A DNA stretch of 64,000 nt from the sequence record NC_052654.1. One strand, written 5' to 3'. The translations under genes and the position numbers were made by a program. Below the pieces are notes generated by a model. That model made no database searches. It was not told where the DNA came from and saw only the letters and a program-made list of their open reading frames with translations. This DNA comes from Escherichia phage vB_EcoM-Ro121c4YLVW. Positions within the stretch are counted from its first letter, which is position 1. The number at the start of each line of letters is the position of its first letter. This document shows, one piece after another, positions 1,592 through 12,078 of this stretch.

Positions 1592-2197
1592 ATGCAACAT
1601 AGTGTAGTAGTCAACATGCCGAATAGTGGGGATAAATCTTTTGGTGTCCCTGCTAAAAAAGTGTGGAAAGCCCATTTTCATCTTACTTTATCTAACGTTA
1701 GTTCTGAAGAGTTGATGAAAGCAGCTAAGATTATTGGTGCCAAATGCACAACAATTGATTTACATCGGGATACAAAGTCTCAACGTGATCGTATGTTAAC
1801 AAAGTATCAAAGCGATCTCGACACTACTTTAATGTTGCAGTGTGTAGAAAAACTTGAGAATGCAGGTTTCAATGTTGTTCGTTACAAACTGGAACGAATG
1901 TTTAAACATGTTGCCTGTGTTCTTTTCATGGATCTAAGTAAAGAAAATTACGGAGAAGTTCACATTAAGACTTCAGCAAGTGATCCCGAAGTAGAAACAA
2001 ACTTCTTCCGTATTTCTTCTAATGCTGAAGAAATTGATTACCGATTTTATAATGCTCGCTTATATTCCGCAGAAGATAAGTTGCGTTTCAATGAAGCGTA
2101 TGATATGCTCTTGAACAGTGGGATACAGATAAAAGGCTACCACATAGAACAAGTGGTAGTGGACAGTAATCTTAACTTAGACGCATGGTGGGCTTAA
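1592..2197 (+). CDS. Hypothetical protein, first gene of the HAD/PRTase/macro operon
   Basis: RBS gaggag lies upstream and the stop is 1 nt before the HAD gene start. A single HLTL (H-x-T-x) motif is not enough for a family call. Confidence 0.6.
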   Translation: MQHSVVVNMPNSGDKSFGVPAKKVWKAHFHLTLSNVSSEELMKAAKIIGAKCTTIDLHRDTKSQRDRMLTKYQSDLDTTLMLQCVEKLENAGFNVVRYKLERMFKHVACVLFMDLSKENYGEVHIKTSASDPEVETNFFRISSNAEEIDYRFYNARLYSAEDKLRFNEAYDMLLNSGIQIKGYHIEQVVVDSNLNLDAWWA

Positions 2198-2198
2198 T

Positions 2199-2855
2199 AT
2201 GACTATTAAACATATCTCTTTTGATGTATGGAACACACTGATCACAGCAAACTCCAATTACGCAGACATGCGAGCCTGGACTATCGCAAAATATGGAGAT
2301 ATTACGGAAGTGGAAGCAAGAGCAGCTTATAAAAAGATCAAAAAGGAACTGGATAATGCAGCACTTCAAGGCAAAGCCGAGTGTGCAGCATACGCTTGGG
2401 AAAGACTTGGTTCTGAACTTGGGATAACGCCTTGGAAGTCTGCAAAGCTTCGTTTCGAGTGTGAACAGTGGTTCCTTAAGTTTCCACCACACGTAGCCGT
2501 GGATCTGCCGATGTACTTGCTGTATCTTTCGGGGCGTTATGATTTGAGTATTAAGAGCAATACCAACTTCATATCAGGGGATATCCTGCGTCGTGCTTGT
2601 AAGTTTGATAGTTGGAATTGTTTTGAGTTCACCCATTTCTCGGATGAAGCTTTACTTTGTAAACCAGATCCGCGATTCTTTGCTCGCACGCTCACGTATT
2701 CTCCGGTCCCTCTGTTAGGGCACGAAGTATTGCACGTAGGCGATAGTGAAGAATATGATGGAAAATGTGTTGACTTAGGATTTAACTTCTGTCATATTAA
2801 GAACCCTAACGACTTACTAGAGAAACTTAAAAGAGGAGAAATTGTAAATGCGTAA
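2199..2855 (+). CDS. HAD-superfamily hydrolase/phosphatase (haloacid-dehalogenase-like subfamily)
   Basis: Four HAD motifs are present: motif I FDVWNTL (compare FDxYGTL), motif II SIKSNTN, motif III CKPDPRFF, motif IV HVGDSEEYDG. Confidence 0.85.
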   Translation: MTIKHISFDVWNTLITANSNYADMRAWTIAKYGDITEVEARAAYKKIKKELDNAALQGKAECAAYAWERLGSELGITPWKSAKLRFECEQWFLKFPPHVAVDLPMYLLYLSGRYDLSIKSNTNFISGDILRRACKFDSWNCFEFTHFSDEALLCKPDPRFFARTLTYSPVPLLGHEVLHVGDSEEYDGKCVDLGFNFCHIKNPNDLLEKLKRGEIVNA

Positions 2856-3675
2856 TCAAACTCAAATTTTTGCAAATAAATTTGATGACCTGGAAACTGC
2901 TACTTTTGATATCAAAGATTATTCAAAATTGAAATTTGGTAGTAACCAAGCTGCGCGTCGTATGGGTAAAGAATTGGCACTTCAGTTTTTTGCTCAAGTG
3001 GCAATGAAACATATTGGGGAACAATTTGTTATCATCCCTTCTCCTTATAACCATGTGCATAATGCTGCAACAATGATGACAGATCATTTTATTAATTACT
3101 TTAATATGTTGCAAGCACAATATGATCAAGGTCGTTCAGCAGAACTGGATATTATTCATCGTAAAGTTAGCTATATCAACGATTATGGTTTCTTGGATAA
3201 AGCTAGTCGTAAGAAACTTATTGATGGGGATACATTCTACTGCAACAAAGAATTCTGGGGTGATAAGAAGCTTGTGTTCATTGATGATGTAAATATCACC
3301 GGAACTCATGAAGACAAACTGATTGAGATTCTTGATGAAAATCAAGTTAAAAATGATGTTTACTTCTTGTATTTTGCAAAATATGAAGGTAATCAAGCAG
3401 ATACTGAAGCTAAACTGAATTTTAACTACATCAATACACCAGAAGCGTTTGTTAAAATGATTAATGAAGAACGTGATGCACAGTGCCTTGTTCGTCCTAT
3501 TAAGTATCTTATGGGCCAAAATCACGAAGACTTCAAAATCATTCTTAGCCAATTGCCACACTACTATGTAGAGCAACTTTTCTTTGGATGTTTGGGAGAA
3601 GGTTACAACCGAATTTCAAAGTATGCTGAAAACTTTGAATTCTTGGATCGTTACACAAAACAACATATTCTGTAA
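2848..3675 (+). CDS. Phosphoribosyltransferase (type I PRTase fold, Ter-associated/ComF-like type)
   Basis: PRPP-binding loop KLVFIDDVNITGTHEDK (hydrophobic-DD-x-x-TG-T). The ORF overlaps the HAD gene by 8 nt. Confidence 0.8.
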   Translation: MRNQTQIFANKFDDLETATFDIKDYSKLKFGSNQAARRMGKELALQFFAQVAMKHIGEQFVIIPSPYNHVHNAATMMTDHFINYFNMLQAQYDQGRSAELDIIHRKVSYINDYGFLDKASRKKLIDGDTFYCNKEFWGDKKLVFIDDVNITGTHEDKLIEILDENQVKNDVYFLYFAKYEGNQADTEAKLNFNYINTPEAFVKMINEERDAQCLVRPIKYLMGQNHEDFKIILSQLPHYYVEQLFFGCLGEGYNRISKYAENFEFLDRYTKQHIL

Positions 3676-3688
3676 TAAGGAGCTAAAA

Positions 3689-4162
3689 ATGCTTAAAATG
3701 AAAACAGGTAATCTTATTGATGCCGCTAAAGCAGGAGAAGTAACTGTTATTGCTCATTGTTGCAATTGTATGTGTAATATGGGAGCAGGAATTGCTCCGC
3801 AAATTAAACGAGCATTCCCTTATGCATATGCGGCAGATTTAGACACAATGGCTGGTGATCAAAGTAAGTTAGGTTCTTTTAGTTTAGGGGTGCCAGACGA
3901 ACAATCAGACCCTTTGGTATATAATCTATACGGACAATACCGTTACGGATACAATGCTAAAGGTCGTCAGTTGGACTATGATGCACTTTACGATGCACTA
4001 ATAGCTATGGCTAATGATTTGCTTCTCCGTGACCAAAAATGTAAGATCGGCTTACCTATGATTGGCGCTGGATATGCTGGAGGTAATTGGGCTATCATCC
4101 AAGTGATGATTGAAGAAACTTTAGTAAAAACAGGTCACGATGTGACTATTTATAAACTTTAA
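3689..4162 (+). CDS. Macro-domain protein (ADP-ribose binding/processing)
   Basis: Start re-set to the ATG at 3689 (RBS aaggag, after the PRTase stop at 3675). Motifs: GNLIDA...VIAHCCNC...GAGIAPQIKRAFP and GLPMIGAGYAGGNW. Confidence 0.8.
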   Translation: MLKMKTGNLIDAAKAGEVTVIAHCCNCMCNMGAGIAPQIKRAFPYAYAADLDTMAGDQSKLGSFSLGVPDEQSDPLVYNLYGQYRYGYNAKGRQLDYDALYDALIAMANDLLLRDQKCKIGLPMIGAGYAGGNWAIIQVMIEETLVKTGHDVTIYKL

Positions 4163-4174
4163 GAGGAGATTAGT

Positions 4175-4396
4175 ATGGGTGTTTTTGCAGGTATTGTTGC
4201 AGTGGTAAGCTTTTTTGTTATTGCTTTTATGCTTAGTTTGATTCCAGCTTGGTTACTGTTGCTGGCTTACAACTATGTTGCTGAAGTTATGGGTCATGCA
4301 GATATCACTGTCCCAGTAACCTTCTGGACCGTGGTTTGTGTTTCGTTTATTCTGGCGGTATTACGAGGAATCTTTTCCTCTCATTCAACAAAATAA
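4175..4396 (+). CDS. Small membrane protein with two predicted TM helices
   Basis: RBS gaggag. The 73-aa product is almost entirely hydrophobic (VFAGIVAVVSFFVIAFMLSLIPAWLLLLAY; FWTVVCVSFILAVL). Confidence 0.55.
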   Translation: MGVFAGIVAVVSFFVIAFMLSLIPAWLLLLAYNYVAEVMGHADITVPVTFWTVVCVSFILAVLRGIFSSHSTK

Positions 4397-4399
4397 GTG

Positions 4400-4427
4400 T
4401 TGACATAGTTCTTAAAAAGAGTAAGAT
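4400..4427 (+). promoter_or_regulatory. Sigma70-like promoter upstream of the TerC gene
   Basis: TTGACA (4400-4405), about 16 nt spacer, TAAGAT (4422-4427). Confidence 0.5.
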
Positions 4428-4439
4428 ATATCACATGAA

Positions 4440-4458
4440 GCGGGGAATAGTTCCCCGC
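4440..4458 (+). promoter_or_regulatory. 5'-UTR stem-loop in the TerC leader
   Basis: GCGGGGAA-tag-TTCCCCGC forms a perfect 8-bp stem. There is no U-tract and the RBS gagaggag follows. Confidence 0.5.
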
Positions 4459-4475: not shown

Positions 4476-5447
4476 ATGCAACTCGGTTTCCCAATTATTG
4501 ATGTAGTTGTTTTAGTTGGTATTTTGGCATTGTCTATTGGTATCGATTTCTTTGGTCATAAAGAGAATAAAGAAATTGGAATTAAATCTGCTTTGCTTTG
4601 GTCTGTTTTTTGGATTGCTTTAGCTTTAGGATATTACGCATTCATTTGGGTAGAGCATGGTAAAGAGTTTGCCGCACTTTTCCTAAGTGGATATGTGTTG
4701 GAAAAGAGTCTTTCTGTAGATAACCTAATGGTGTTCATGGCAATTTTTGCAAGCTTTGGAATTAAGAGCACACATCTCCAACATAAGATTTTACTTTGGG
4801 GTATTGCAGGTGCCATTGTCTTCCGAGGTGTTTTTGTTGCAGCAGGGACAGCTTTGTTTAACCTGCATTGGTCGGTCCAAGTGTTGTTCGGTCTGATTGT
4901 AGCTTGGTCTGCCGTTGCTATTATCAAAGGTGGTGACGAAGAAGATATTGATTACTCTAAACATTGGGCTGTTCGTTTAGTAGGTAAAGTTCTGCCTGTG
5001 CACAACGCACTGGATGGTGAAAAGTTCATTACCATTAAGAATGGTATTAAATATGCAACTCCTGCTCTTCTTTGTGTGTTTGTTATTGAGCTTACAGATA
5101 TTGTGTTCTCTTTTGATTCAGTTCCGGCTGTTATTGGTGTGACACAAGAACCTCTGCTAGTTTATTCTGCAATGCTGATGGCTGTTCTTGGTTTACGTGC
5201 ACTTTTCTTTGTGTTAAGTGTAGCTGTGAAATATCTGGTTCACTTAGAGAAAGCTGTTGCTGTGGTTCTGGTGTTTGTTGGTGCTAAACTTATGTATCAC
5301 CCGTTCGGTGAAACACTTCATGCCAAGTGGTCATTCCTCCCGCATGATATTTCCCCTAACGTAAGTCTGATGATTGTTCTAGGCACATTAGCTCTTGGTG
5401 TTATTGCAAGCTTTATCTTCCCTGAAAAAGAAGAAGCTGCTGTTTAA
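4476..5447 (+). CDS. TerC/Alx-family integral membrane protein
   Basis: Polytopic hydrophobic protein carrying the TerC signature GYVLEKSLSVDNLMVFMAIF, and a second half with FSFDSVPAVIGVT. Confidence 0.9.
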   Translation: MQLGFPIIDVVVLVGILALSIGIDFFGHKENKEIGIKSALLWSVFWIALALGYYAFIWVEHGKEFAALFLSGYVLEKSLSVDNLMVFMAIFASFGIKSTHLQHKILLWGIAGAIVFRGVFVAAGTALFNLHWSVQVLFGLIVAWSAVAIIKGGDEEDIDYSKHWAVRLVGKVLPVHNALDGEKFITIKNGIKYATPALLCVFVIELTDIVFSFDSVPAVIGVTQEPLLVYSAMLMAVLGLRALFFVLSVAVKYLVHLEKAVAVVLVFVGAKLMYHPFGETLHAKWSFLPHDISPNVSLMIVLGTLALGVIASFIFPEKEEAAV

Positions 5448-5453
5448 TAGATG

Positions 5454-5477
5454 AGCCTCCTTCGGGAGGCTATTTTA
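5454..5477 (+). terminator. Rho-independent terminator
   Basis: AGCCTCC-ttcg-GGAGGCT followed by attttat. Confidence 0.75.
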
Positions 5478-5489
5478 TAGGAGAGACTT

Positions 5490-5840
5490 ATGAGTAATTT
5501 TGATGAAATTCAAAAACTTGTTTGGGATTTACCTGATGATGTTGATTACGTTTCAGATTATCTTTCAAAAGTTTACCCTGGGGTAAGCGTTATGATTGTG
5601 ACCAAAGATCCAATTAATTTGCCTCCTAATGTGGTAGCTTGTTGTGGGAGTGGTTCAGGGGAAGTGGAGCCTGTATCCCGTTGGGAATTAACTAAAGCTG
5701 TTTCAAAACGAAACGGTGAAGTTTTGAATATTGATATCGAGCAAATATGGACTTCTCCAGCAGCTAAATGGAATGATCCGAATGGTTGGGACTTGTTCTT
5801 CTGGGATAATGAAACTGATGATGAGGTATTTTTAAAATGA
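5490..5840 (+). CDS. Hypothetical protein
   Basis: RBS aggagag. 116 aa with no recognisable motif. Confidence 0.55.
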   Translation: MSNFDEIQKLVWDLPDDVDYVSDYLSKVYPGVSVMIVTKDPINLPPNVVACCGSGSGEVEPVSRWELTKAVSKRNGEVLNIDIEQIWTSPAAKWNDPNGWDLFFWDNETDDEVFLK

Positions 5841-6082
5841 AATACTTGTTGGTTGTGTTTGAAAATATTTGTTTTGCAATAGGGTTGTTTGTTGTAATTT
5901 TTGTATTGACAAGCGTAATCAACGGCAGTAAAGTGAGTTTATACCGAGATGGAGAGCAACTTTATTGCTTCTCTGGAGATTTCAAACACAGATGTATTAA
6001 TAGCCAAAACGAGGAAAGCAAATATGAAAAAACTAGCCCTGATTTTAATTGGTTGTATCTTTTTAACAGCTTGCGAGGATGA
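5837..6082 (+). CDS. Possible small membrane protein (uncertain)
   Basis: ATGA overlap with the upstream stop and a hydrophobic N-terminus. However, it overlaps the lipoprotein gene start by 59 nt and contains a promoter-like site. Confidence 0.3.
   Translation: MKYLLVVFENICFAIGLFVVIFVLTSVINGSKVSLYRDGEQLYCFSGDFKHRCINSQNEESKYEKTSPDFNWLYLFNSLRG
5906..5934 (+). promoter_or_regulatory. Sigma70-like promoter upstream of the lipoprotein gene
   Basis: TTGACA (5906-5911), 17 nt spacer, TAAAGT (5929-5934). Confidence 0.4.
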
Positions 6083-6461
6083 AACAAATCCTGCACAATA
6101 CCAACAACCTCCTCAACAATACGCTCAACAAGGATCTGACGGAGATACAACTATTATCAACAATGGTGGCGGTTCTAGTAGTAGCGGTGTTGGTGAGTTT
6201 GCTACAGGTATGTTGTTAGGGCATATGATGAGTGGCGGTAGTAATCGTAGCAGTGGGGATTATAACGATAACAGAACGATTATTAATAAGCATTATAATA
6301 CACCTAAACCGAAAACTAATTTTTATAGTAAGCCTAAACAAGAGATAAAAACTTATGAAAAGCCGAGACAAACTTTTAAAACAAATAGTAGCTATACAAC
6401 TCGTAAATCTTACAATAGCCCTTTAAGTAAAAAGAGTTCATCTCGTAGCAAGCGACGTTAA
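6024..6461 (+). CDS. Lipoprotein with a Gly/Ser-rich middle and a Lys/Ser-rich basic tail
   Basis: Start re-set to the internal ATG. MKKLALILIGCIFLTAC is a signal peptide with a lipobox (LTAC). The RBS is gaggaaag. Confidence 0.7.
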   Translation: MKKLALILIGCIFLTACEDETNPAQYQQPPQQYAQQGSDGDTTIINNGGGSSSSGVGEFATGMLLGHMMSGGSNRSSGDYNDNRTIINKHYNTPKPKTNFYSKPKQEIKTYEKPRQTFKTNSSYTTRKSYNSPLSKKSSSRSKRR

Positions 6462-6475
6462 TAAGGAGAAAAACA

Positions 6476-7069
6476 ATGACAATTTCTATTCGTACTTCCA
6501 TCGTAGGTGTTAAAAGGTTGCCTAATGCTTTGCAAATCACACGCGCTTTGAGGGATACATTCTCTGCTGTGGACGAGCATAAGATGCTTGATAATCTTTC
6601 AAATTGGCCCTATTTCCATTATTTTAAAAATGAAGATGACGAGTTTATAGACGCTGTTTCTTATGGTTATGATTTCGGTAAGGAGGTTTCTGCTGAAGAA
6701 TTTGTAGCTATGGTGTTCCCAAACGGTTTGCCTACTCGCAGTAAACGTAAAAAAGGACCAAAAAACAAGAAACGTGCTACTAATAAAGCTACCATTTTCT
6801 TTACTGATGGCACACAATATACGATTAAAGATTTTGAAGAGGTATCTTATACAGCAGGTGGGAATCTTTCTTTCTACACCATCAAAAAACAAAACTCTAC
6901 GTTCAGCCATGTTTCTAACATGATTGAAATGTTAGTAGAAGATATTGAAAGCGTAGCTGTGTTAGGTATGCATAAAAGCTTTTTAATTACAAATATTTCA
7001 GATTTCAGTGCACGTTTATCTGGTCCTGATTTTGAAACCACGACCACGCATTTCACTTTTAAGGTGTAA
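6476..7069 (+). CDS. Hypothetical protein with a basic patch RSKRKKGPKNKKR
   Basis: RBS aaggagaa. 197 aa with no family motif recognised. Confidence 0.55.
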   Translation: MTISIRTSIVGVKRLPNALQITRALRDTFSAVDEHKMLDNLSNWPYFHYFKNEDDEFIDAVSYGYDFGKEVSAEEFVAMVFPNGLPTRSKRKKGPKNKKRATNKATIFFTDGTQYTIKDFEEVSYTAGGNLSFYTIKKQNSTFSHVSNMIEMLVEDIESVAVLGMHKSFLITNISDFSARLSGPDFETTTTHFTFKV

Positions 7070-7072
7070 GTT

Positions 7073-7663
7073 ATGTATACCGAGAGAGACTTGCAACTCT
7101 TGTGGTGGGAAGTGATGCAGGAAATAAAAGAAGATTTTCCTGTTTACTACAACATGTTACGTGAAGCAGGATATAAAGCTTGTGTTAGAAACAAAGTGAA
7201 TAACTCTTTCGGTTGGTGCAACTACCGAGATAAAATTGTTGTTGTAAATTGGCACTTGCATAAGAACTCTACAAGAGATATGATCGTGGATACAATGAAG
7301 CACGAAATTGCTCATGCTATTGATGGTTGTATGGGTAAGTTTAGTAGACACGGTGCTCATTGGCAAAAACTGGCAGCAGAGTTAGGGGCTAATCCTAAAG
7401 CCACTTCCAAAGAGCCGTTGAACCACGAATATAAATATGTTCTTGTTCTGGTAGATAGGTTTGCGACAAGATGTGTTAGAGGTTATAATCGTAAACCTAA
7501 TCGCATGTACCCAGGTAAGCAACCTAATATGTGGTTGAAATCAGATAAAGAAGGGACCGAAGGAAAATTATGGTTGTATAAATGGGACGATTGGGTTAAA
7601 GTAGCTAAAGAGTACGGTGTTTCACCATATATAAGAGATGCAGAAGAGGAGAATGAAGAATGA
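7073..7663 (+). CDS. SprT-like zinc metallopeptidase-domain protein
   Basis: MKHEIAHAIDG...HGAHWQKLAAELGANP contains the HExxH motif plus a downstream His, typical of SprT-like domains. Confidence 0.75.
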   Translation: MYTERDLQLLWWEVMQEIKEDFPVYYNMLREAGYKACVRNKVNNSFGWCNYRDKIVVVNWHLHKNSTRDMIVDTMKHEIAHAIDGCMGKFSRHGAHWQKLAAELGANPKATSKEPLNHEYKYVLVLVDRFATRCVRGYNRKPNRMYPGKQPNMWLKSDKEGTEGKLWLYKWDDWVKVAKEYGVSPYIRDAEEENEE

Positions 7664-8772
7664 CAAGTCCATTTTTAAAAGCAGCTACTGGCGGTCAGAA
7701 GAAGCCTGAAATGAGCGTATTTGCTGCAACAACAGATGCAAGTAAATCTGTATTCGCTCCAAGCGTGTTAGATGCCAGTCCTGTTTATGCACCAGCGGCA
7801 CCGCAAGAAGTTCCAGTTTTGCCTTCTATGACCCGACAAGAGATCGAAGAGATTGGGGCAGAGGCAGGAACAACCTTGCGTTCCTTGAATGCCGAGGTAT
7901 TAAAACATCAACGTAGTAATCAAGGCGATCAGATGAGTGAACGACTCACAGCTTTGATTAAACAGGCAAAACAACTTGATCCAAACTCTATTAAACAAAG
8001 CAAGGGTATTACTAAACTCATTAAAAAAGTTATGGGTATGAAAGAAGATCTGTTTGGGGAGTTTGATAATGTTAATAACCGTATTGAAGAGTTGGTAAAA
8101 AACCTTCAAATGGATATTCGCAAAGAAGAAGATTCCTTGGTATATCTTGAAAAGCTACATCAAGCTATTGGACAATATGCTGCAAGTTTGAACCGAGATA
8201 TGCAGCTTCTAACAGCAACCTATGAAAAAGAAGAACAAGCTTTGGCTGCTCTTCCAGAAGATGCAGTAGAACAGCGACAAGTGATCCGAGATACTTTGGA
8301 TCTTCTGGAGATTCGTATTGCAGATTTAAAAGCATTGCGCCTACTGTGTGTCCAAATGGGACCGCGTGTACAAGGTATGCAAAAAGTTTCTGCAAGCTTA
8401 ATGCGATCTGCGCGTAACATAGTAAATAATGTTATTCCTGCTTACTCTGCTAACTTCTCAATGTATATCGAGAGCTTACGTCAAATGAAAGCAGCAGAGA
8501 CGCAGAATAACGTTCTTGATGAATTTAACCTGGCAATTAAACTGGGTAGCGATCTTGCCACACAGAATCAGATAGAAGCAGCAGCACTGGCTAACCGTCA
8601 AGTGTTGGATATTGAAACTCTGCGTCACGATCAGGAAAACTTGGTTAAGATGTTGGAAGAAACTAACCGCATCAATACGGAAGCCCGTGCTGCTCGTGTT
8701 GATTATATTAATGAAGTTCAATCTTTGGAAGACGGGATGGTAGCTGCTGTGAAACGAGGGCTTGGTAAATGA
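7660..8772 (+). CDS. TelA-like (toxic anion resistance) protein
   Basis: ATGA overlap with the SprT gene. The 370-aa product is all-helical with a layout like TelA/KlaA/YceH: an N-terminal disordered region followed by long helices, e.g. LTALIKQAKQLDPN, NRIEELVKNLQ. Confidence 0.7.
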   Translation: MTSPFLKAATGGQKKPEMSVFAATTDASKSVFAPSVLDASPVYAPAAPQEVPVLPSMTRQEIEEIGAEAGTTLRSLNAEVLKHQRSNQGDQMSERLTALIKQAKQLDPNSIKQSKGITKLIKKVMGMKEDLFGEFDNVNNRIEELVKNLQMDIRKEEDSLVYLEKLHQAIGQYAASLNRDMQLLTATYEKEEQALAALPEDAVEQRQVIRDTLDLLEIRIADLKALRLLCVQMGPRVQGMQKVSASLMRSARNIVNNVIPAYSANFSMYIESLRQMKAAETQNNVLDEFNLAIKLGSDLATQNQIEAAALANRQVLDIETLRHDQENLVKMLEETNRINTEARAARVDYINEVQSLEDGMVAAVKRGLGK

Positions 8773-8966
8773 GAATCCGTATCTATATAATTGATGAGGA
8801 CATTGGTGTCCGTTATGATGACGAAAAACGATTCGCACCAATGGGAGGCATATATCCCCCAAGTGTTCTAGCAGTTTGTCGTGATTGTTATATTTATGAA
8901 GGTTGTCGTAACTTCCGTAAATTCCAACTCCTTGCAGATATTGACTTCAATGAGGAGGAGGAGTAA
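8769..8966 (+). CDS. Hypothetical small Cys-containing acidic protein
   Basis: ATGA overlap with the TelA stop. Contains CRDCYIYEGC and an acidic tail NEEEE. Confidence 0.45.
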   Translation: MRIRIYIIDEDIGVRYDDEKRFAPMGGIYPPSVLAVCRDCYIYEGCRNFRKFQLLADIDFNEEEE

Positions 8967-9139
8967 TGAAAATATTACGAGTGAATATTGAAACTGCTTG
9001 GTGTGGATGCAATGAGGTTGTGGATATCGAAATTGAAGATGATATGTCTCAAGAGGATATAGAAGATCTTGCCCACGAAACCTTTCAGGACTATTGTAAT
9101 TACGGGTTTCATATTTTAGAGGAGGAAGAAGATGTTTAA
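8966..9139 (+). CDS. Unlisted 57-aa strongly acidic ORF (below the track length cutoff)
   Basis: TAATG overlap with the upstream stop, and its own stop overlaps the next start (9132). Translation by hand: MKILRVNIETAWCGCNEVVDIEIEDDMSQEDIEDLAHETFQDYCNYGFHILEEEEDV. It fills an otherwise empty gap. Confidence 0.45.
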   Translation: MKILRVNIETAWCGCNEVVDIEIEDDMSQEDIEDLAHETFQDYCNYGFHILEEEEDV

Positions 9140-9335
9140 CTACGATAACGATCCTAATATTATCCAGTTAACCCGACAAGAACTGATCACAATCATTGAA
9201 GATGCTTTTATTGATGGTTGGAATACACAAGATAATGACTGGGGTGGACCCGAAGCTTTTCTGGAACATCATAAAGCTTATGGAGAATTTTGTGAAACCA
9301 CTGTAGCTCTTGATAATCTGAAGGAGGGTTTGTAA
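9132..9335 (+). CDS. Hypothetical small acidic protein
   Basis: RBS gaggaggaag. 67 aa. Confidence 0.5.
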   Translation: MFNYDNDPNIIQLTRQELITIIEDAFIDGWNTQDNDWGGPEAFLEHHKAYGEFCETTVALDNLKEGL

Positions 9336-9898
9336 TGGGTTGTTTTAGTTTTTTGTGCAAAGAATCGGGCAAAGCTGCCCTTTCTACTTCTTTCGACGGA
9401 TCACCTTGCTACCTCTTTCTTTTGAAAGACGGTGTTGTTATTGAAGAGATGTATGGCAACTATGATAGTTATGGTTGTGTTTTCTCTGGAAAAGAGGATG
9501 AAAATGGCGTTCGTGAACGGTTCGAATGGGCTATGGATTGGGGTAAGGTTTGTGATTTAATGCATTCCTCAAATCCAAGGGACGGTATTGCTATGGTGCT
9601 GGAAGAGTACTTTACAGGTGAAATCCCTACAGAACAATCTGACGGAGATCCTAATCAAGGTTGGGGTGATGGTGAAGAAGATCCAGATTGTTTTTTCAGC
9701 ACAGAAAAGAATAAGTTTAAACGTGTTGACAACCCTTATCACAAAGTGCATAATACTCTCATTGAAACAGAAGATGACAAGATGGAAATTGAAGAAGATG
9801 ATCCTCTTGTAACACTTCCTATAAGTGAGTTACAAAAGATCACTAAGGAAGCTTACGATTTGGGCTTCAAAATTGGTAGAGGAGGTATGCGTGTTTAG
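9335..9898 (+). CDS. Hypothetical protein
   Basis: TAATG coupling to the upstream ORF. 187 aa with an acidic middle region. Confidence 0.6.
   Translation: MGCFSFLCKESGKAALSTSFDGSPCYLFLLKDGVVIEEMYGNYDSYGCVFSGKEDENGVRERFEWAMDWGKVCDLMHSSNPRDGIAMVLEEYFTGEIPTEQSDGDPNQGWGDGEEDPDCFFSTEKNKFKRVDNPYHKVHNTLIETEDDKMEIEEDDPLVTLPISELQKITKEAYDLGFKIGRGGMRV
9726..9754 (+). promoter_or_regulatory. Internal sigma70-like promoter upstream of small paralog A
   Basis: TTGACA (9726-9731), 17 nt spacer, CATAAT (9749-9754) with TG just upstream. Confidence 0.4.
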
Positions 9899-10169
9899 AT
9901 TCAATATTCAAGAAGAAAAAAGTCAGGATTTACCTATTGCTTTCGAAGATCTTGACGTAGGGGCCACATTCATGTATTATGATGCCTATGAAGACGCAGG
10001 GTTGGATACCTACCGTAACTTGGTGTTCATTAAAAATTCCACAAACAGTGCGATTTGTATTAATGGATCACTAGCACAACGAGGCTATACTCATTGCATC
10101 CCACCAGATACAAATATGGTGGAAGTAGATTTAGAAGTTACCAATATTACACTTAAGAAGGAGAAATAA
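9891..10169 (+). CDS. Small beta-rich protein, paralog A (precedes the vWA gene)
   Basis: Start re-set to the GTG at 9891, 5 nt after ggagg. It aligns with the 11191-11460 product: F.I.E.K...DLDVG.TF.Y..A....GLD....V..K ... .VE.L.VT.ITLK. Confidence 0.6.
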   Translation: MFRFNIQEEKSQDLPIAFEDLDVGATFMYYDAYEDAGLDTYRNLVFIKNSTNSAICINGSLAQRGYTHCIPPDTNMVEVDLEVTNITLKKEK

Positions 10170-10170
10170 T

Positions 10171-10965
10171 ATGTCCGAGAAAATCAGCCTGAAAAAACGT
10201 CAAGAAAACCTTGCTTTCTCTCTGAAAAAGAATAAGAACCTGAATGAAGGTAAGATTGTTCTTCGTGTAGCATGTGCTCTAGATATTTCTGGTAGTATGC
10301 ATGGTCTATATTCTAGTGGGGTAGTGAGTGATTTTGTAGGTAAACTGCTTCCTTTTGGTATGCTGTTCGACGATAATCAACAAATTGATATGTGGGCCTT
10401 CAATACGAGTTCCCAAGAGCTTACTCCAGCAACAGCAGACGTTTACGATGACTATGTTGGTAAATGTATGCGTAATGTTCGTATCGGAGGTGGAACAAAT
10501 TACGCCCCTGTAATGGCAGATATCTACGATGAGTATTTTGGCACTGTTACCAAATATATTACCACTAAACAAGTGGTACAAGAGGAGGCTCCAAAGAAAG
10601 GCTTCTTTAATCGTCTGCTTGGTAAAACTGAAACAGTGTCTGTAGAGCGTGAAAAAGTTGTAGCTGTATCTGAACCAGGTGCTGACGTTACCCCTGGTGT
10701 TGTATTCTTCCAGACGGATGGTGAGAATGGTGATCCTAGTGCTGTTCGTCGTCTTATTGAAGAGAATAAGAATAAACCTATTTATTGGTTCATGGTTGGC
10801 GTTGGTAATGAGAAGTTTGGCTTCCTGAAAGAACTGGCAAATGCTTATGATAATGTTGGTTTTATTGGCATTAAAGATTTAGACTTGACAGATTCAGAGC
10901 TTTATGACAAACTCTTATCTGAAGAGTTCGGAGAGTGGGTTGTTAAAGTAGGTGCTAAAAAATGA
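10171..10965 (+). CDS. von Willebrand factor A domain protein (TerF-C-terminal-type vWA)
   Basis: MIDAS motif ACALDISGSM, downstream GGTNY, and the FFQTDGENGD motif. The N-terminus EKISLKKRQENLAFSLKK mimics the first strand of TerD domains. Confidence 0.8.
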   Translation: MSEKISLKKRQENLAFSLKKNKNLNEGKIVLRVACALDISGSMHGLYSSGVVSDFVGKLLPFGMLFDDNQQIDMWAFNTSSQELTPATADVYDDYVGKCMRNVRIGGGTNYAPVMADIYDEYFGTVTKYITTKQVVQEEAPKKGFFNRLLGKTETVSVEREKVVAVSEPGADVTPGVVFFQTDGENGDPSAVRRLIEENKNKPIYWFMVGVGNEKFGFLKELANAYDNVGFIGIKDLDLTDSELYDKLLSEEFGEWVVKVGAKK

Positions 10966-11210
10966 TCGACGAGCTTGCCTCTCAAGTCGTAGAAAATTAT
11001 TGGCGCGAGAGAGAAGCTTTCATTATGCGCAGTCTCAAAGAGTATTTCATTGGGACTGTGCGAATGGAAGATATTGTAAGTAGAGTAGAGATTCATGTAT
11101 GGCCCGATTATGAAGAATGGGTTGACAAAGAAAATGAAAATGCTATAATTCTTCGTATATACAAACCGGAGATAACATTAGGAGGAAGAAGTGTTAAACT
11201 TCGAAATTGA
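10962..11210 (+). CDS. Hypothetical protein
   Basis: ATGA overlap with the vWA stop. 82 aa. Confidence 0.5.
   Translation: MIDELASQVVENYWREREAFIMRSLKEYFIGTVRMEDIVSRVEIHVWPDYEEWVDKENENAIILRIYKPEITLGGRSVKLRN
11122..11149 (+). promoter_or_regulatory. Internal sigma70-like promoter upstream of small paralog B and TerD
   Basis: TTGACA (11122-11127), 16 nt spacer, extended -10 TGcTATAAT (11141-11149). Confidence 0.5.
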
Positions 11211-11460
11211 TGAGCAAAAAGTAAATAAACGATGCCTTACCATTAAAGATTTGGATGTAGGAGATACTTTCGTCTATGAAAATGCATTTGACGAAAATGG
11301 TTTAGACCTTAGTGAAATCATTGTTTATTTAAAAGTAGATGATGGGGAAAATGATTATTCTGCTGTAGAACTAAACCATCATGCACAATTAGTATCAATC
11401 CAAAACACATCTAAGCTTTTGGAAGTAGAATTGACTGTAACTGGTATTACACTTAAATAA
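11191..11460 (+). CDS. Small beta-rich protein, paralog B (precedes the TerD gene)
   Basis: GTG start after ggaggaag. Paralogous to 9891-10169. Confidence 0.6.
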   Translation: MLNFEIDEQKVNKRCLTIKDLDVGDTFVYENAFDENGLDLSEIIVYLKVDDGENDYSAVELNHHAQLVSIQNTSKLLEVELTVTGITLK

Positions 11461-11475
11461 TAGAGGAGACAAAAG

Positions 11476-12078
11476 ATGACTGATAAAATTTCCCTGAAAA
11501 AAGGCTCTAGCGAAAAAATTTCCCTGAAGAAAGTTGCTCCGGCTCTGAAAGAACTGCGCCTGGAATTCTCTTGGAAATCTGATTCTAAACTGGATCTGGA
11601 TGTAAGTGCACTGGTTTGTCGTCATAATGCCGCTGGCAATCCTGAAATGCTGTCCGCACGTCATCTGGTTTGCTATGCTAACAAGTTTGATCCTGAACGT
11701 TCTACCTTCGCTGGTGACGATGTTCGTGATGGGACTGGCAGCATGGAGCAGATTGATATTACTCTGGCTAAAATCTCTCCTGATGCACAAGAGATTGCCT
11801 TTGTTCTGACCATTGATGATGATACAGGTCTGAAACGTTTTGGTCATGCTTCTGAAGGTATGCTTAAAATCTTCGACTCCGAGCGTAATGTGGAAATTCT
11901 GGATTTTGACTTCCTGGCTCCTGAAGTAGCTGGCAACACAATCTGCCACGTGGCTTCCCTGGTTCGTGAAGATGGAGAATGGAAGCTGAAAGCATATGGT
12001 GTAGGTAAAGCTGGTCTGGATATTTGCGATGTGGTGATGGCCTTCGGTGGTAAAAAAGAATGGTATGAATGTCCATAA
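11476..12078 (+). CDS. TerD-domain protein (tellurium-resistance TerD family)
   Basis: DKISLKKGSSEKISLKKVAP...LDLDVSALVC and the Ca-binding-type loop FAGDDVRDGTGSMEQIDITL match E. coli TerD (VSLSKGGNVSLSK...FDLDASAF...GDNRTGEGDGDDE). 18 of 19 Leu codons are CTG. Confidence 0.9.
   Translation: MTDKISLKKGSSEKISLKKVAPALKELRLEFSWKSDSKLDLDVSALVCRHNAAGNPEMLSARHLVCYANKFDPERSTFAGDDVRDGTGSMEQIDITLAKISPDAQEIAFVLTIDDDTGLKRFGHASEGMLKIFDSERNVEILDFDFLAPEVAGNTICHVASLVREDGEWKLKAYGVGKAGLDICDVVMAFGGKKEWYECP
11485..11528 (+). repeat. 14-nt perfect direct repeat (aaaatttccctgaa) 30 nt apart, encoding the duplicated KISLKK strand
   Basis: Copies at 11485-11498 and 11515-11528, read directly from the sequence. 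Confidence 0.9.

Follow-up and report, generated by a model that had tools for sequence, protein, structure and literature searches.

A four-gene block of Escherichia phage vB_EcoM-Ro121c4YLVW as a probable mosaic: a Ter-type HAD-PRTase_3 pair, a predicted DNA de-ADP-ribosylating macrodomain and a relative of AbiEii-linked bacterial proteins

Four tightly packed genes of Escherichia phage vB_EcoM-Ro121c4YLVW, at positions 1592-4162 of a 64-kb window of NC_052654.1 (the window is the whole stretch of DNA that was studied, and all coordinates are positions in it), recall parts of systems that have been described elsewhere. One of these is the Ter-linked module reported by Anantharaman, Iyer & Aravind in 2012, in which a phosphoribosyltransferase (PRTase) and a HAD enzyme are said to make a "nucleoside-like metabolite" with ATP-grasp and TIM-barrel C-C lyase partners; the association of PRTase, HAD and Ter genes in phages has already been described computationally. 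In a published summary of the Ter system, PRTases and HAD phosphoesterases are the source of a derivative of a nucleoside or nucleotide, the ligand binders are TerB and TerD, TerC lies in the membrane, and TelA and TerF-vWA lie beneath it; Ter systems also occur in phages, where competition with superinfecting phages is their proposed role, and superinfection exclusion or membrane-stress control has been suggested (PMC7824862). Klebsiella phage phiKp34 has a comparable Ter-like cluster (PMC8386662). The macrodomain protein SCO6735 efficiently strips DarT-installed ADP-ribose from thymidine in single-stranded DNA and rescues cells from DarT; it does not have the catalytic Lys/Asp residues that TARG1 and DarG use, needs Gln85, which is positioned by Asn27, carries a longer basic mobile loop, and has a Val25 that is proposed to act through its backbone (PMC9411070). 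Among phage proteins, the macrodomain AdfM (phiKZ gp104) protects against DarTG2 (PMC13309987), AdfN, orphan NADAR enzymes of T-even and other phages, counter DarTG1 (PMC11825919), and NARP1, NARP2 and NARP3 are phage pathways of NAD+ reconstitution (PMC13464706).

We favor the reading, at a probability of roughly 0.55, that the block is a mosaic, made up of three accessory modules with separate lines of inheritance, and that it lies in the early/nucleotide-metabolism arm of a Phapecoctavirus. Gene structure, family assignments, conserved residues, synteny, fusions and AbiEii adjacency were established directly, and all of the substrates, activities and phenotypes given below are predictions built upon them. 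The four genes are:

1592-2197, + strand: gene 1 (201 aa), an orphan member of an uncharacterised enzyme-like family
2199-2855, + strand: HAD-fold hydrolase (218 aa) of a PRTase_3-linked subfamily, assigned from motif I and weak Pfam and PDB matches
2848-3675, + strand: PRTase_3 (275 aa; Pfam PF15610), presumably a ComF-like type I PRTase
3689-4162, + strand: stand-alone macrodomain (157 aa) of the ALC1-like class, SCO6735/BT1257 subclass, matching PDB 5e3b

Their junctions (a 1-nt gap between gene 1 and HAD, an 8-nt overlap between HAD and PRTase, and a 13-nt gap between PRTase and macrodomain) are exactly the tight packing described in the initial annotation of this DNA, and good ribosome-binding sites precede the open reading frames (ORFs), with Shine-Dalgarno sequences seen ahead of 1592 and 3689. 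That annotation had also joined the four genes into one coupled pathway, and here the comparison with other genomes leads elsewhere. We mapped the window proteins by tblastn onto 48 fetched loci and counted homologues in 50,697 phage records (tblastn, E <= 1e-5). PRTase_3 is present in 155 phage records, gene 1 in 185 and the macrodomain in 2,936. Gene 1 is missing from the phi92-like relatives L033 and L037, which keep the short ORF upstream of gene 1 (below) followed by HAD, PRTase and macrodomain; the macrodomain adjoins the PRTase only in Stephanstirmvirinae-type phages, and even among relatives two loci (L034 and L035) have a 188-aa ORF between PRTase and macrodomain, L035 with an extra 127-aa ORF. 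Gene 1 and the macrodomain are about 27 kb apart in Rheinheimera phages, the HAD-PRTase pair occurs in some 35 loci without either of them, and in one 153-kb phage (L006, the same contig as L045) the order is gene 1, macrodomain, TerC, vWA/TerD and then HAD-PRTase. Since locus comparison and phage-record counts separate the macrodomain and gene 1 from the pair, HAD-PRTase_3 is the sole obligatory unit, and the other two are separate mobile accessory genes that are neighbors here by happenstance.

A single four-step pathway would have gene 1 make or activate a base, the PRTase ribosylate it, the HAD enzyme dephosphorylate the result and the macrodomain process an ADP-ribose-like derivative. Given the loss of gene 1 from phages that retain the other three genes, the unrelated ORFs between PRTase and macrodomain, the pairs found alone, the very unequal record counts and the distances in Rheinheimera phages, we regard such a pathway as improbable. 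The points in its favor are also those that count against a mosaic: the packing is that of an operon, all four genes share a strand, neither promoters nor terminators were found inside it, and even the rearranged phage L006/L045 holds gene 1, the macrodomain, Ter genes and HAD-PRTase within about 15 kb. In addition, relatives of gene 1 recur near NAD or ADP-ribose genes (NAMPT, NUDIX and NAD kinase in L051; SIR2 and DUF4326 in L050). Because the genes are tightly packed without internal signals, co-regulation is likely and a functional link is possible. Two further features of the relatives were seen in these comparisons. The C-terminal half of the inserted 188-aa ORF (L034 4024-4590; L035 9505-10071) resembles a MazG-type nucleoside triphosphate (NTP) pyrophosphatase (ETGECADW...GECADVIICALDL) with no Pfam hit, and the phi92-like macrodomain protein (277 aa; L033 9734-10567) has a related N-terminal extension.

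The HAD-PRTase_3 pair is very probably the biosynthetic arm of a phage-borne Ter-like system, to judge from family assignments and gene neighborhoods. The PRTase matches Pfam PRTase_3 with E 6.1e-42 and 144.2 bits (cut-off 28.7) over aa 11-266, corresponding to profile positions 9-264 of 264. It has 241 homologues, and its phosphoribosyl pyrophosphate (PRPP) loop, D146-D147-V-N-I-T151-G152-T153-H154-E155 (IDDVxITGTHExKL), is invariant in 23 diverse homologues with overall identities of 44-65%, which bears out the earlier remark that this loop is intact. The HAD protein scores 21.4 bits (E 3.6e-4) against Pfam PF00702, under the gathering score of 26.4, and matches PDB 2om6 (E 7.5e-5), which shares its FDVWNTL motif. 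In each PRTase-carrying locus examined, PRTase_3 is immediately preceded by the HAD gene; these loci comprise 16 viral contigs (jumbo phages of 195-500 kb among them) and about 20 loci from bacteria (Rhizobium, Ensifer, Sinorhizobium, Bacteroidales, Dysgonomonas, Tannerella, a Peribacteria metagenome-assembled genome (MAG) and Pedococcus), and in at least 15 of these loci TerC, TerD, vWA-TerF or TelA is no more than 9 kb away. In the present phage TerC, TelA, vWA-TerF-like and TerD genes follow the block at 0.3-8 kb on the same strand and make up a nearly complete Ter-like suite:

4400-4427, + strand: promoter-like site TTGACA-16-TAAGAT, from a scan (10/12 positions agree; a consensus match only)
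4440-4458, + strand: 8-bp hairpin in the sequence ahead of TerC
4476-5447, + strand: TerC-family membrane protein (Pfam PF03741, E 7.5e-40)
5454-5471, after TerC: terminator-like hairpin from the terminator scan
7073-7663, + strand: SprT-like gene (Pfam SprT-like, E 4.2e-9), overlapping the TelA-like gene by 4 nt
7660-8772, + strand: TelA-like protein (Pfam PF05816, E 3.2e-33)
10171-10965, + strand: vWA-TerF-like protein (Pfam PF10138, E 1.6e-37)
11476-12078, + strand: TerD-domain protein (Pfam PF02342, E 3.2e-28)

The PRTase-then-phosphatase logic and the connection to Ter that had been proposed for these genes are both upheld by this invariable pairing and by the Ter-like genes at 4476-12078. 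As in the described module, the HAD gene stands directly upstream of the PRTase gene, TerC, TerD, vWA-TerF-like and TelA genes are nearby, and the pair is found in bacteria as well as in phages. The PRTase would couple a base with PRPP, yielding a ribonucleoside 5'-monophosphate, the HAD enzyme would process this nucleotide by way of Asp9, nominally dephosphorylating it to a nucleoside-like molecule, and the TerD, TerC, TelA and vWA proteins would respond to the product.

Several observations weigh against too literal a transfer of the Ter model to this pair. The HAD protein had been credited with all four catalytic motifs, and much of that stands, since the nucleophile Asp9 of motif I (D9-V-W11-N-T13, within FDVWNTL) is kept in all homologues and motif II (SNT), motif III (a Lys in a K-P column) and motif IV (GDSEEYD, G-D-x(3-4)-D) are present and conserved. 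What does not stand is the second half of motif I. In HAD phosphatases and mutases the Asp+2 of the D-x-D motif is the general acid/base, and in this protein it is replaced by Trp (W11); an alignment of HAD ORFs taken from about 40 phage and bacterial PRTase_3 loci has [F/L]-D-x-W-x-T in all of them. Because D-x-W is invariant where D-x-D is expected, the phosphatase role is insecure, and the HAD step may differ from an ordinary phosphatase reaction. Accessible texts on the Ter module, which do not include the original 2012 description, make no mention of D-x-W in PRTase-linked HAD proteins, and as far as the searchable literature shows this family-wide motif is new. No ATP-grasp or C-C lyase partner of the kind given for the Ter-linked module is present among the Pfam-scanned ORFs of 1-12.7 kb (the other ORFs there are shorter than 175 aa), and the flanking macrodomain and gene 1 are further differences from that module. 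Our search of the literature found nothing on PRTase_3 or PF15610, and we know of no substrate for PRTase_3.

Some relatives of the pair and of its Ter-like neighbors deserve separate mention. In Xanthomonas phage XaC1 and related jumbo phages (L009-L011), HAD-PRTase_3 lies among RNA-repair-type genes (RNA ligase, DUF2828/DUF7788, 2H-SAK, CCA/polyA polymerase and NUDIX) instead of Ter genes. A contig of the MAG Proteobacteria bacterium OH_PFB_59 (JAEZZU010000022.1; L012), likely phage contamination, has gene 1 and PRTase sequences that are 100% and 99.6% identical to those of this phage, and a HAD gene (8352-9005) that is 76.6% identical and constitutes a second patch of local recombination. 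The first such patch is TerC, whose protein is 73% identical to those of phages SKA64 and P3322 although the flanking genes are 99-100% identical, and 85-87% identical to those of the more distant relatives L003 and L004; with its own promoter-like site, hairpin and terminator it resembles an exchangeable cassette.

Two other uses of the PRTase product had been suggested, a counter to NAD+-based immunity and the making of a modified nucleotide, and the nature and neighbors of the PRTase leave both of them very low in our ranking. To go by the name of its Pfam family, PRTase_3 is presumably a type I, ComF-like enzyme and not of the NAMPT/NAPRT type, and nicotinamide is therefore an unlikely substrate. 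This bears on an NAD+ rescue scheme in which the PRTase would rebuild NMN (nicotinamide mononucleotide) or NAD-like molecules from nicotinamide and the macrodomain would supply ADP-ribose, against NAD-depleting immunity. Phages do possess NAD+ reconstitution pathways (NARP1-3; PMC13464706), which like the present genes involve phage-encoded ribose-phosphate chemistry, used in that case against immunity, and in some Vibrio phages a macrodomain homologue lies beside a ribose-phosphate pyrophosphokinase gene. Unlike those pathways, the present genes do not include the defining Adps/Namat, NAMPT/NMNAT and PnuC/NadR proteins and the PRTase is of another class; the ORFs scanned in 1-12.7 kb gave no adenylyltransferase, Prs-like kinase or PnuC/NadR, NMN would be broken down by a HAD phosphatase, and bacterial HAD-PRTase pairs are tied to Ter genes and not to NAD genes. 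NAD+ rescue is thus very improbable. A DNA-modification pathway, which would use the PRTase-HAD product as the source of an unusual base in phage DNA, seems just as remote: the block does adjoin ribonucleotide reductase genes, and MazG-like ORFs are inserted nearby in relatives, but the same pair lies beside TerD and TerC in the chromosomes of rhizobia and Bacteroidales, the removal of phosphate to leave a nucleoside is a step away from deoxynucleoside triphosphate pools, and no kinase, glycosylase or transferase suited to it was found in the region scanned.

The macrodomain is, somewhat more probably than the mosaic as a whole, an orphan DNA de-ADP-ribosylase of the SCO6735/DarG2 kind, like AdfM, a prediction made from its sequence relationships. 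Its match to Pfam Macro (PF01661; 23.3 bits, cut-off 22) is narrow, and its closest solved relative is SCO6735 (PDB 5e3b; E 5.3e-13, aa 16-155), with further matches to the solved macrodomains BT1257, TARG1/OARD1, DarG (5m31) and Poa1p, PDB 2fg1 being among the entries matched. The DarG models of PADLOC (E 2.4e-10) and NCBIfam (E 1.5e-8) also match it, the latter with 34 bits (cut-off 250) and over positions 2-147 of 338 only. The loops noted in the initial annotation are present, GAGIA at aa 32-36 and GAGYAGG at aa 126-132, and its proposal that this macrodomain belongs to a class that reverses ADP-ribosylation agrees with the best match to SCO6735, with the DarG models and with the conservation of Q83 and N26. 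The key residues are H23, N26, Q83 and G126-A-G-Y-A-G-G132; Q83 (in G-Q-Y) and N26 (in H-C-C-N) align with SCO6735 Q85 and N27, and the alignment is ungapped across the mobile loop (GQYRYGYNAKGRQL versus GQHGMKTGSKGAPV). Thus, as in the SCO6735/BT1257 subclass, there is a single macrodomain of about 150 aa in which Gln replaces the Lys of TARG1 (K84) and DarG (K80) and the positioning Asn is kept, and as in SCO6735 the mobile loop is equally long and the phosphate-binding loop is Gly-rich. Two positions speak against full equivalence, Cys24 standing at SCO6735 Val25 and Arg85 at SCO6735 Gly87. Membership in DarG2 itself was considered and rejected: the phage protein has Gln for the catalytic Lys, only 157 aa and no C-terminal DarT-binding domain, and reaches 34 of the 250 bits set for the NCBIfam model. 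The enzyme would remove ADP-ribose placed on thymidine of the phage DNA by DarT2-like toxins, presumably through water-mediated catalysis positioned by Gln83 and Asn26. AdfM provides the phage precedent for such anti-DarT2 activity, the two being likened by class and not by direct comparison of homology. The macrodomain is accordingly a further member of a kind already known, and its homologues among the phage records include T4 Tk.4 and proteins of Felixounavirus. In Vibrio phages Athena and VPG01 the macrodomain homologues (about 40% identical) adjoin a ribose-phosphate pyrophosphokinase gene, which recalls the ADP-ribose pyrophosphokinase context of NARP1.

Gene 1 is the least familiar of the four. 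No Pfam, NCBIfam or PDB sequence match was found for it, in keeping with the earlier view that it has no assignable family, and its family profile gave noise only against PDB. Close homologues are few, and a profile search of 1.84 billion representatives returned at least 262 clusters. The first 23 or so residues are non-conserved and predicted to be disordered, and the conserved core begins near aa 24 (nt 1661) and takes up the rest of the protein. A set of 60 diverse members shares sixteen invariant residues, among them H28, H30, T32, R97, K99, E101, E122, H124, S142, N144, E186, D191 and W200, many at alternating positions of beta-strands (H28-x-H30-x-T32, R97-x-K99-x-E101, E122-x-H124 and S142-x-N144); K126, two residues after H124, is invariant among closer relatives only. 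The invariant His, Lys, Arg and Glu residues suggest that gene 1 encodes an enzyme. Structure prediction, which had been recommended for this product, gave a confident AlphaFold2 model of tandem ferredoxin-like fold when a deeper alignment was used (pLDDT 96.2). The Foldseek matches among viral models are uncharacterised proteins, belonging to Rheinheimera, Aeromonas, Acinetobacter ME3 and Sinorhizobium phages and also to the giant viruses Klosneuvirus, Bodo saltans virus and Fadolivirus. Rheinheimera phages supply 110 of the 185 phage records with a homologue. Relatives of gene 1 occur fused to NUDIX (many), SpoT-type HD_4, Ham1/ITPase-like or helix-turn-helix domains, and one has an N-terminus that is MazG-like as judged by eye. 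A 2H phosphoesterase was considered as well; gene 1 does not show two H-x-T/S motifs together with the 2H fold.

The surroundings of some of these relatives are themselves of interest. In L007 (IMGVR_UViG_3300035492_000044, 7980-9000) a 36%-identical homologue overlaps by 47 nt a homologue of Acb1, the anti-CBASS 2H phosphodiesterase (PF23474, E 3e-12), which is followed by RNase H, and the group lies downstream of class I ribonucleotide reductase genes. SIR2 and DUF4326 are near the relative in L050. In phage contig L051 (1729-8125) NAMPT, a 399-aa NUDIX protein and NAD kinase are encoded, and the NAD kinase gene overlaps by 11 nt a fusion of SpoT-type HD_4 and gene 1 domains, which hints at a link of the family to NAD(P) or alarmone metabolism. 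The 79%-identical homologue of Klebsiella phage phi1_175008 is annotated as a MazG-like pyrophosphatase, a name for which we found no support in the gene 1 domain. The contigs of two further proteins (P0166 and P0075) were too short for their neighborhoods to be informative, and no plasmid match came up for P0166.

A different connection emerged from searches of defense-system models. Gene 1 matches the PADLOC AbiEi models PDLC02277 and PDLC02279 (E 4.7e-13 and 4.4e-12; aa 29-200, positions 4-192 of 195), as do all of the 11 family members examined (the phage gene and ten others). In one bacterial branch, whose members when used for a profile search retrieved 11 proteins only, an AbiEii gene is immediately preceded by the family member in 5/5 loci from two phyla (Streptomyces sp., S. 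rimosus, Kitasatospora, Embleya and Deinococcus). Three of the five overlap the AbiEii start (ATGA/GTGA), and 50-70 nt separate the genes in the other two. In Streptomyces sp. CA-142005 the ATGA of the family member overlaps the start of a Pfam-verified AbiEii (PF08843), the annotations of plasmid pSRIMHP of S. rimosus and of a plasmid from Deinococcus show the same pair, and the Kitasatospora and Embleya pairs were found by tblastn. When these AbiEii partners were aligned by hhalign to the phage-centred alignment, the probabilities were 97.8-98.9% over 182-188 columns. Gene 1 is not a canonical AbiEi/MenA3 antitoxin (COG5340), as the winged helix-turn-helix N-terminal domain and AbiEi C-terminal domain of that class were not found in it, and the AbiEii partners of its family are unrelated to the canonical AbiEi/MenA3 or MenA1 antitoxins. 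On the plasmid of Deinococcus sp. QL22 (L061 3110-5382) the pair is divergently flanked by an RNA ligase family gene, which would fit an RNA-directed toxin.

The bacterial arrangement is like that of AbiE/MenAT in that family members are directly upstream of AbiEii, with stop codons overlapping its start in three loci, and unlike it in that the gene 1 family has an enzyme-like invariant site and the phage copy is without a toxin partner. Since no AbiEii-like ORF adjoins it (the 64-kb window and the phage loci have none), phage gene 1 is an orphan homologue and not a toxin-antitoxin module. We tentatively suggest, as a possibility that we hold to be distinctly short of even, that the family forms a new enzymatic antitoxin class for DUF1814/AbiEii toxins, with its tandem ferredoxin-like fold and a His/Lys/Arg/Glu active site, and that the toxin-less copies of phages and giant viruses act against AbiE by hydrolysing the nucleotide product of the toxin or its nucleotidyl modification. 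Gene 1 would then hydrolyse a nucleotide-derived product or modification made by DUF1814 toxins, or a related nucleotide, and so blunt AbiE-type abortive infection; such an anti-AbiE role in this phage is likewise doubtful enough to be offered with reserve. MenT toxins extend the 3' ends of tRNAs, and a phosphodiesterase-like reversal by gene 1 is for that reason conceivable; a small-molecule substrate is equally well indicated by the fusions to pyrophosphatases of free nucleotides. The concept resembles that of AdfN, a phage carrying a toxin-less copy of an enzymatic antitoxin that undoes the modification made by a defense toxin, a likeness that is hypothetical for gene 1, whose fold and toxin family differ from those of AdfN.

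Against an antitoxin role it must be said that AbiEii adjacency has been seen in two bacterial lineages only, that the PADLOC AbiEi label is positional and not functional, and that the fusions to NTP pyrophosphatases fit a plain role in nucleotide metabolism just as well. Another bacterial member is solitary among housekeeping genes (L053-L055), and because of this the AbiEii association does not hold for the whole family. Gene 1 could instead be a nucleotide-pool enzyme that belongs with nrdDG and processes, for example, the nucleoside monophosphates released by NTP pyrophosphatases, with no part in counter-defense. Its location, immediately behind nrdD-nrdG in this phage and a few genes downstream of class I ribonucleotide reductase in L007, its three or more, apparently four, independent pyrophosphohydrolase fusions (NUDIX, HD_4 and Ham1, with the MazG-like one judged by eye), the solitary bacterial copies in housekeeping surroundings and its presence in giant viruses all agree with this. 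We nonetheless consider it a minority explanation, since gene 1 is patchy even among close phage relatives, matches no known nucleotide-metabolism fold or family, has an Acb1 neighbor in L007 and is adjacent to AbiEii in all five loci of the one bacterial branch. A third idea, that gene 1 is the specificity-determining enzyme of the PRTase, is not sustained by its relatives, whose partners are instead AbiEii toxins or, in fusions, NTP pyrophosphatases.

As had been noted before, the block lies beside nrdDG, and its immediate neighbors are as follows:

upstream of the block: the 3' end of nrdD, then nrdG at 901-1371
1385-1576, + strand: conserved short ORF of 63 aa that separates nrdG from gene 1 (PHROG 17780, E 6.5e-40)
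4175-4396, + strand: small membrane protein (73 aa; PHROG 16065, E 6e-43)

The 63-aa ORF is retained in relatives without gene 1, for example L033, and is probably co-transcribed with the neighboring genes; the gene for the 73-aa protein follows the macrodomain gene in all Stephanstirmvirinae-type relatives. Simple promoter and terminator scans gave nothing convincing from nrdG to 4396, and nothing above background inside the block, so the block is probably transcribed together with nrdDG. All four ORFs match a PHROG end to end (E 7e-55 to 1.7e-161), and the 3.1-kb stretch around the block is 99.6% identical to that of Escherichia phage ukendt and conserved in 77 phage records, in 69 of them at full length, nearly all from Phapecoctavirus (Stephanstirmvirinae). 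Some host labels among the matching records look doubtful, namely those of Campylobacter phages B15, A110a and A135, Acinetobacter phage ABPW7, Pseudomonas phage PsgM04F and Serratia phage KKP_3264, which match this group of E. coli phages (98.4% in DNA for B15 and ABPW7; 65-79% in PRTase protein for A110a, KKP_3264 and PsgM04F). Farther along the window, the sign of the GC skew flips near 26 kb (the peak of cumulative skew) and the G+C content rises to 0.42 over 26-34 kb, which probably marks the point where the coding strand switches or another genome module begins.

The macrodomain adds a large Gln-type branch, to which T4 Tk.4 also belongs, to the newly established idea of orphan DarG-like enzymes in phages. 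To our knowledge nobody has shown the role of Ter genes in any lytic phage, and the HAD-PRTase_3 pair has been a computational prediction only since 2012; an easily grown E. coli phage with a Ter-like suite is a practical test bed, and the invariant D-x-W is a warning that the supposed HAD phosphatase may catalyse a different reaction. So far as the literature could be searched, neither the gene 1 family nor its linkage to AbiEii has been described before, and we consider the link to AbiEii the most useful outcome of this analysis, as it offers a concrete and inexpensive experiment on an otherwise unannotated family of at least 262 clusters. If the suggested role is true, two orphan-antitoxin enzymes, one anti-AbiE and one anti-DarT, would stand around a Ter-type signaling pair, and the gene 1 family would represent a new antitoxin mechanism for a very widespread family of abortive-infection toxins and the first phage counter-measure against that family.

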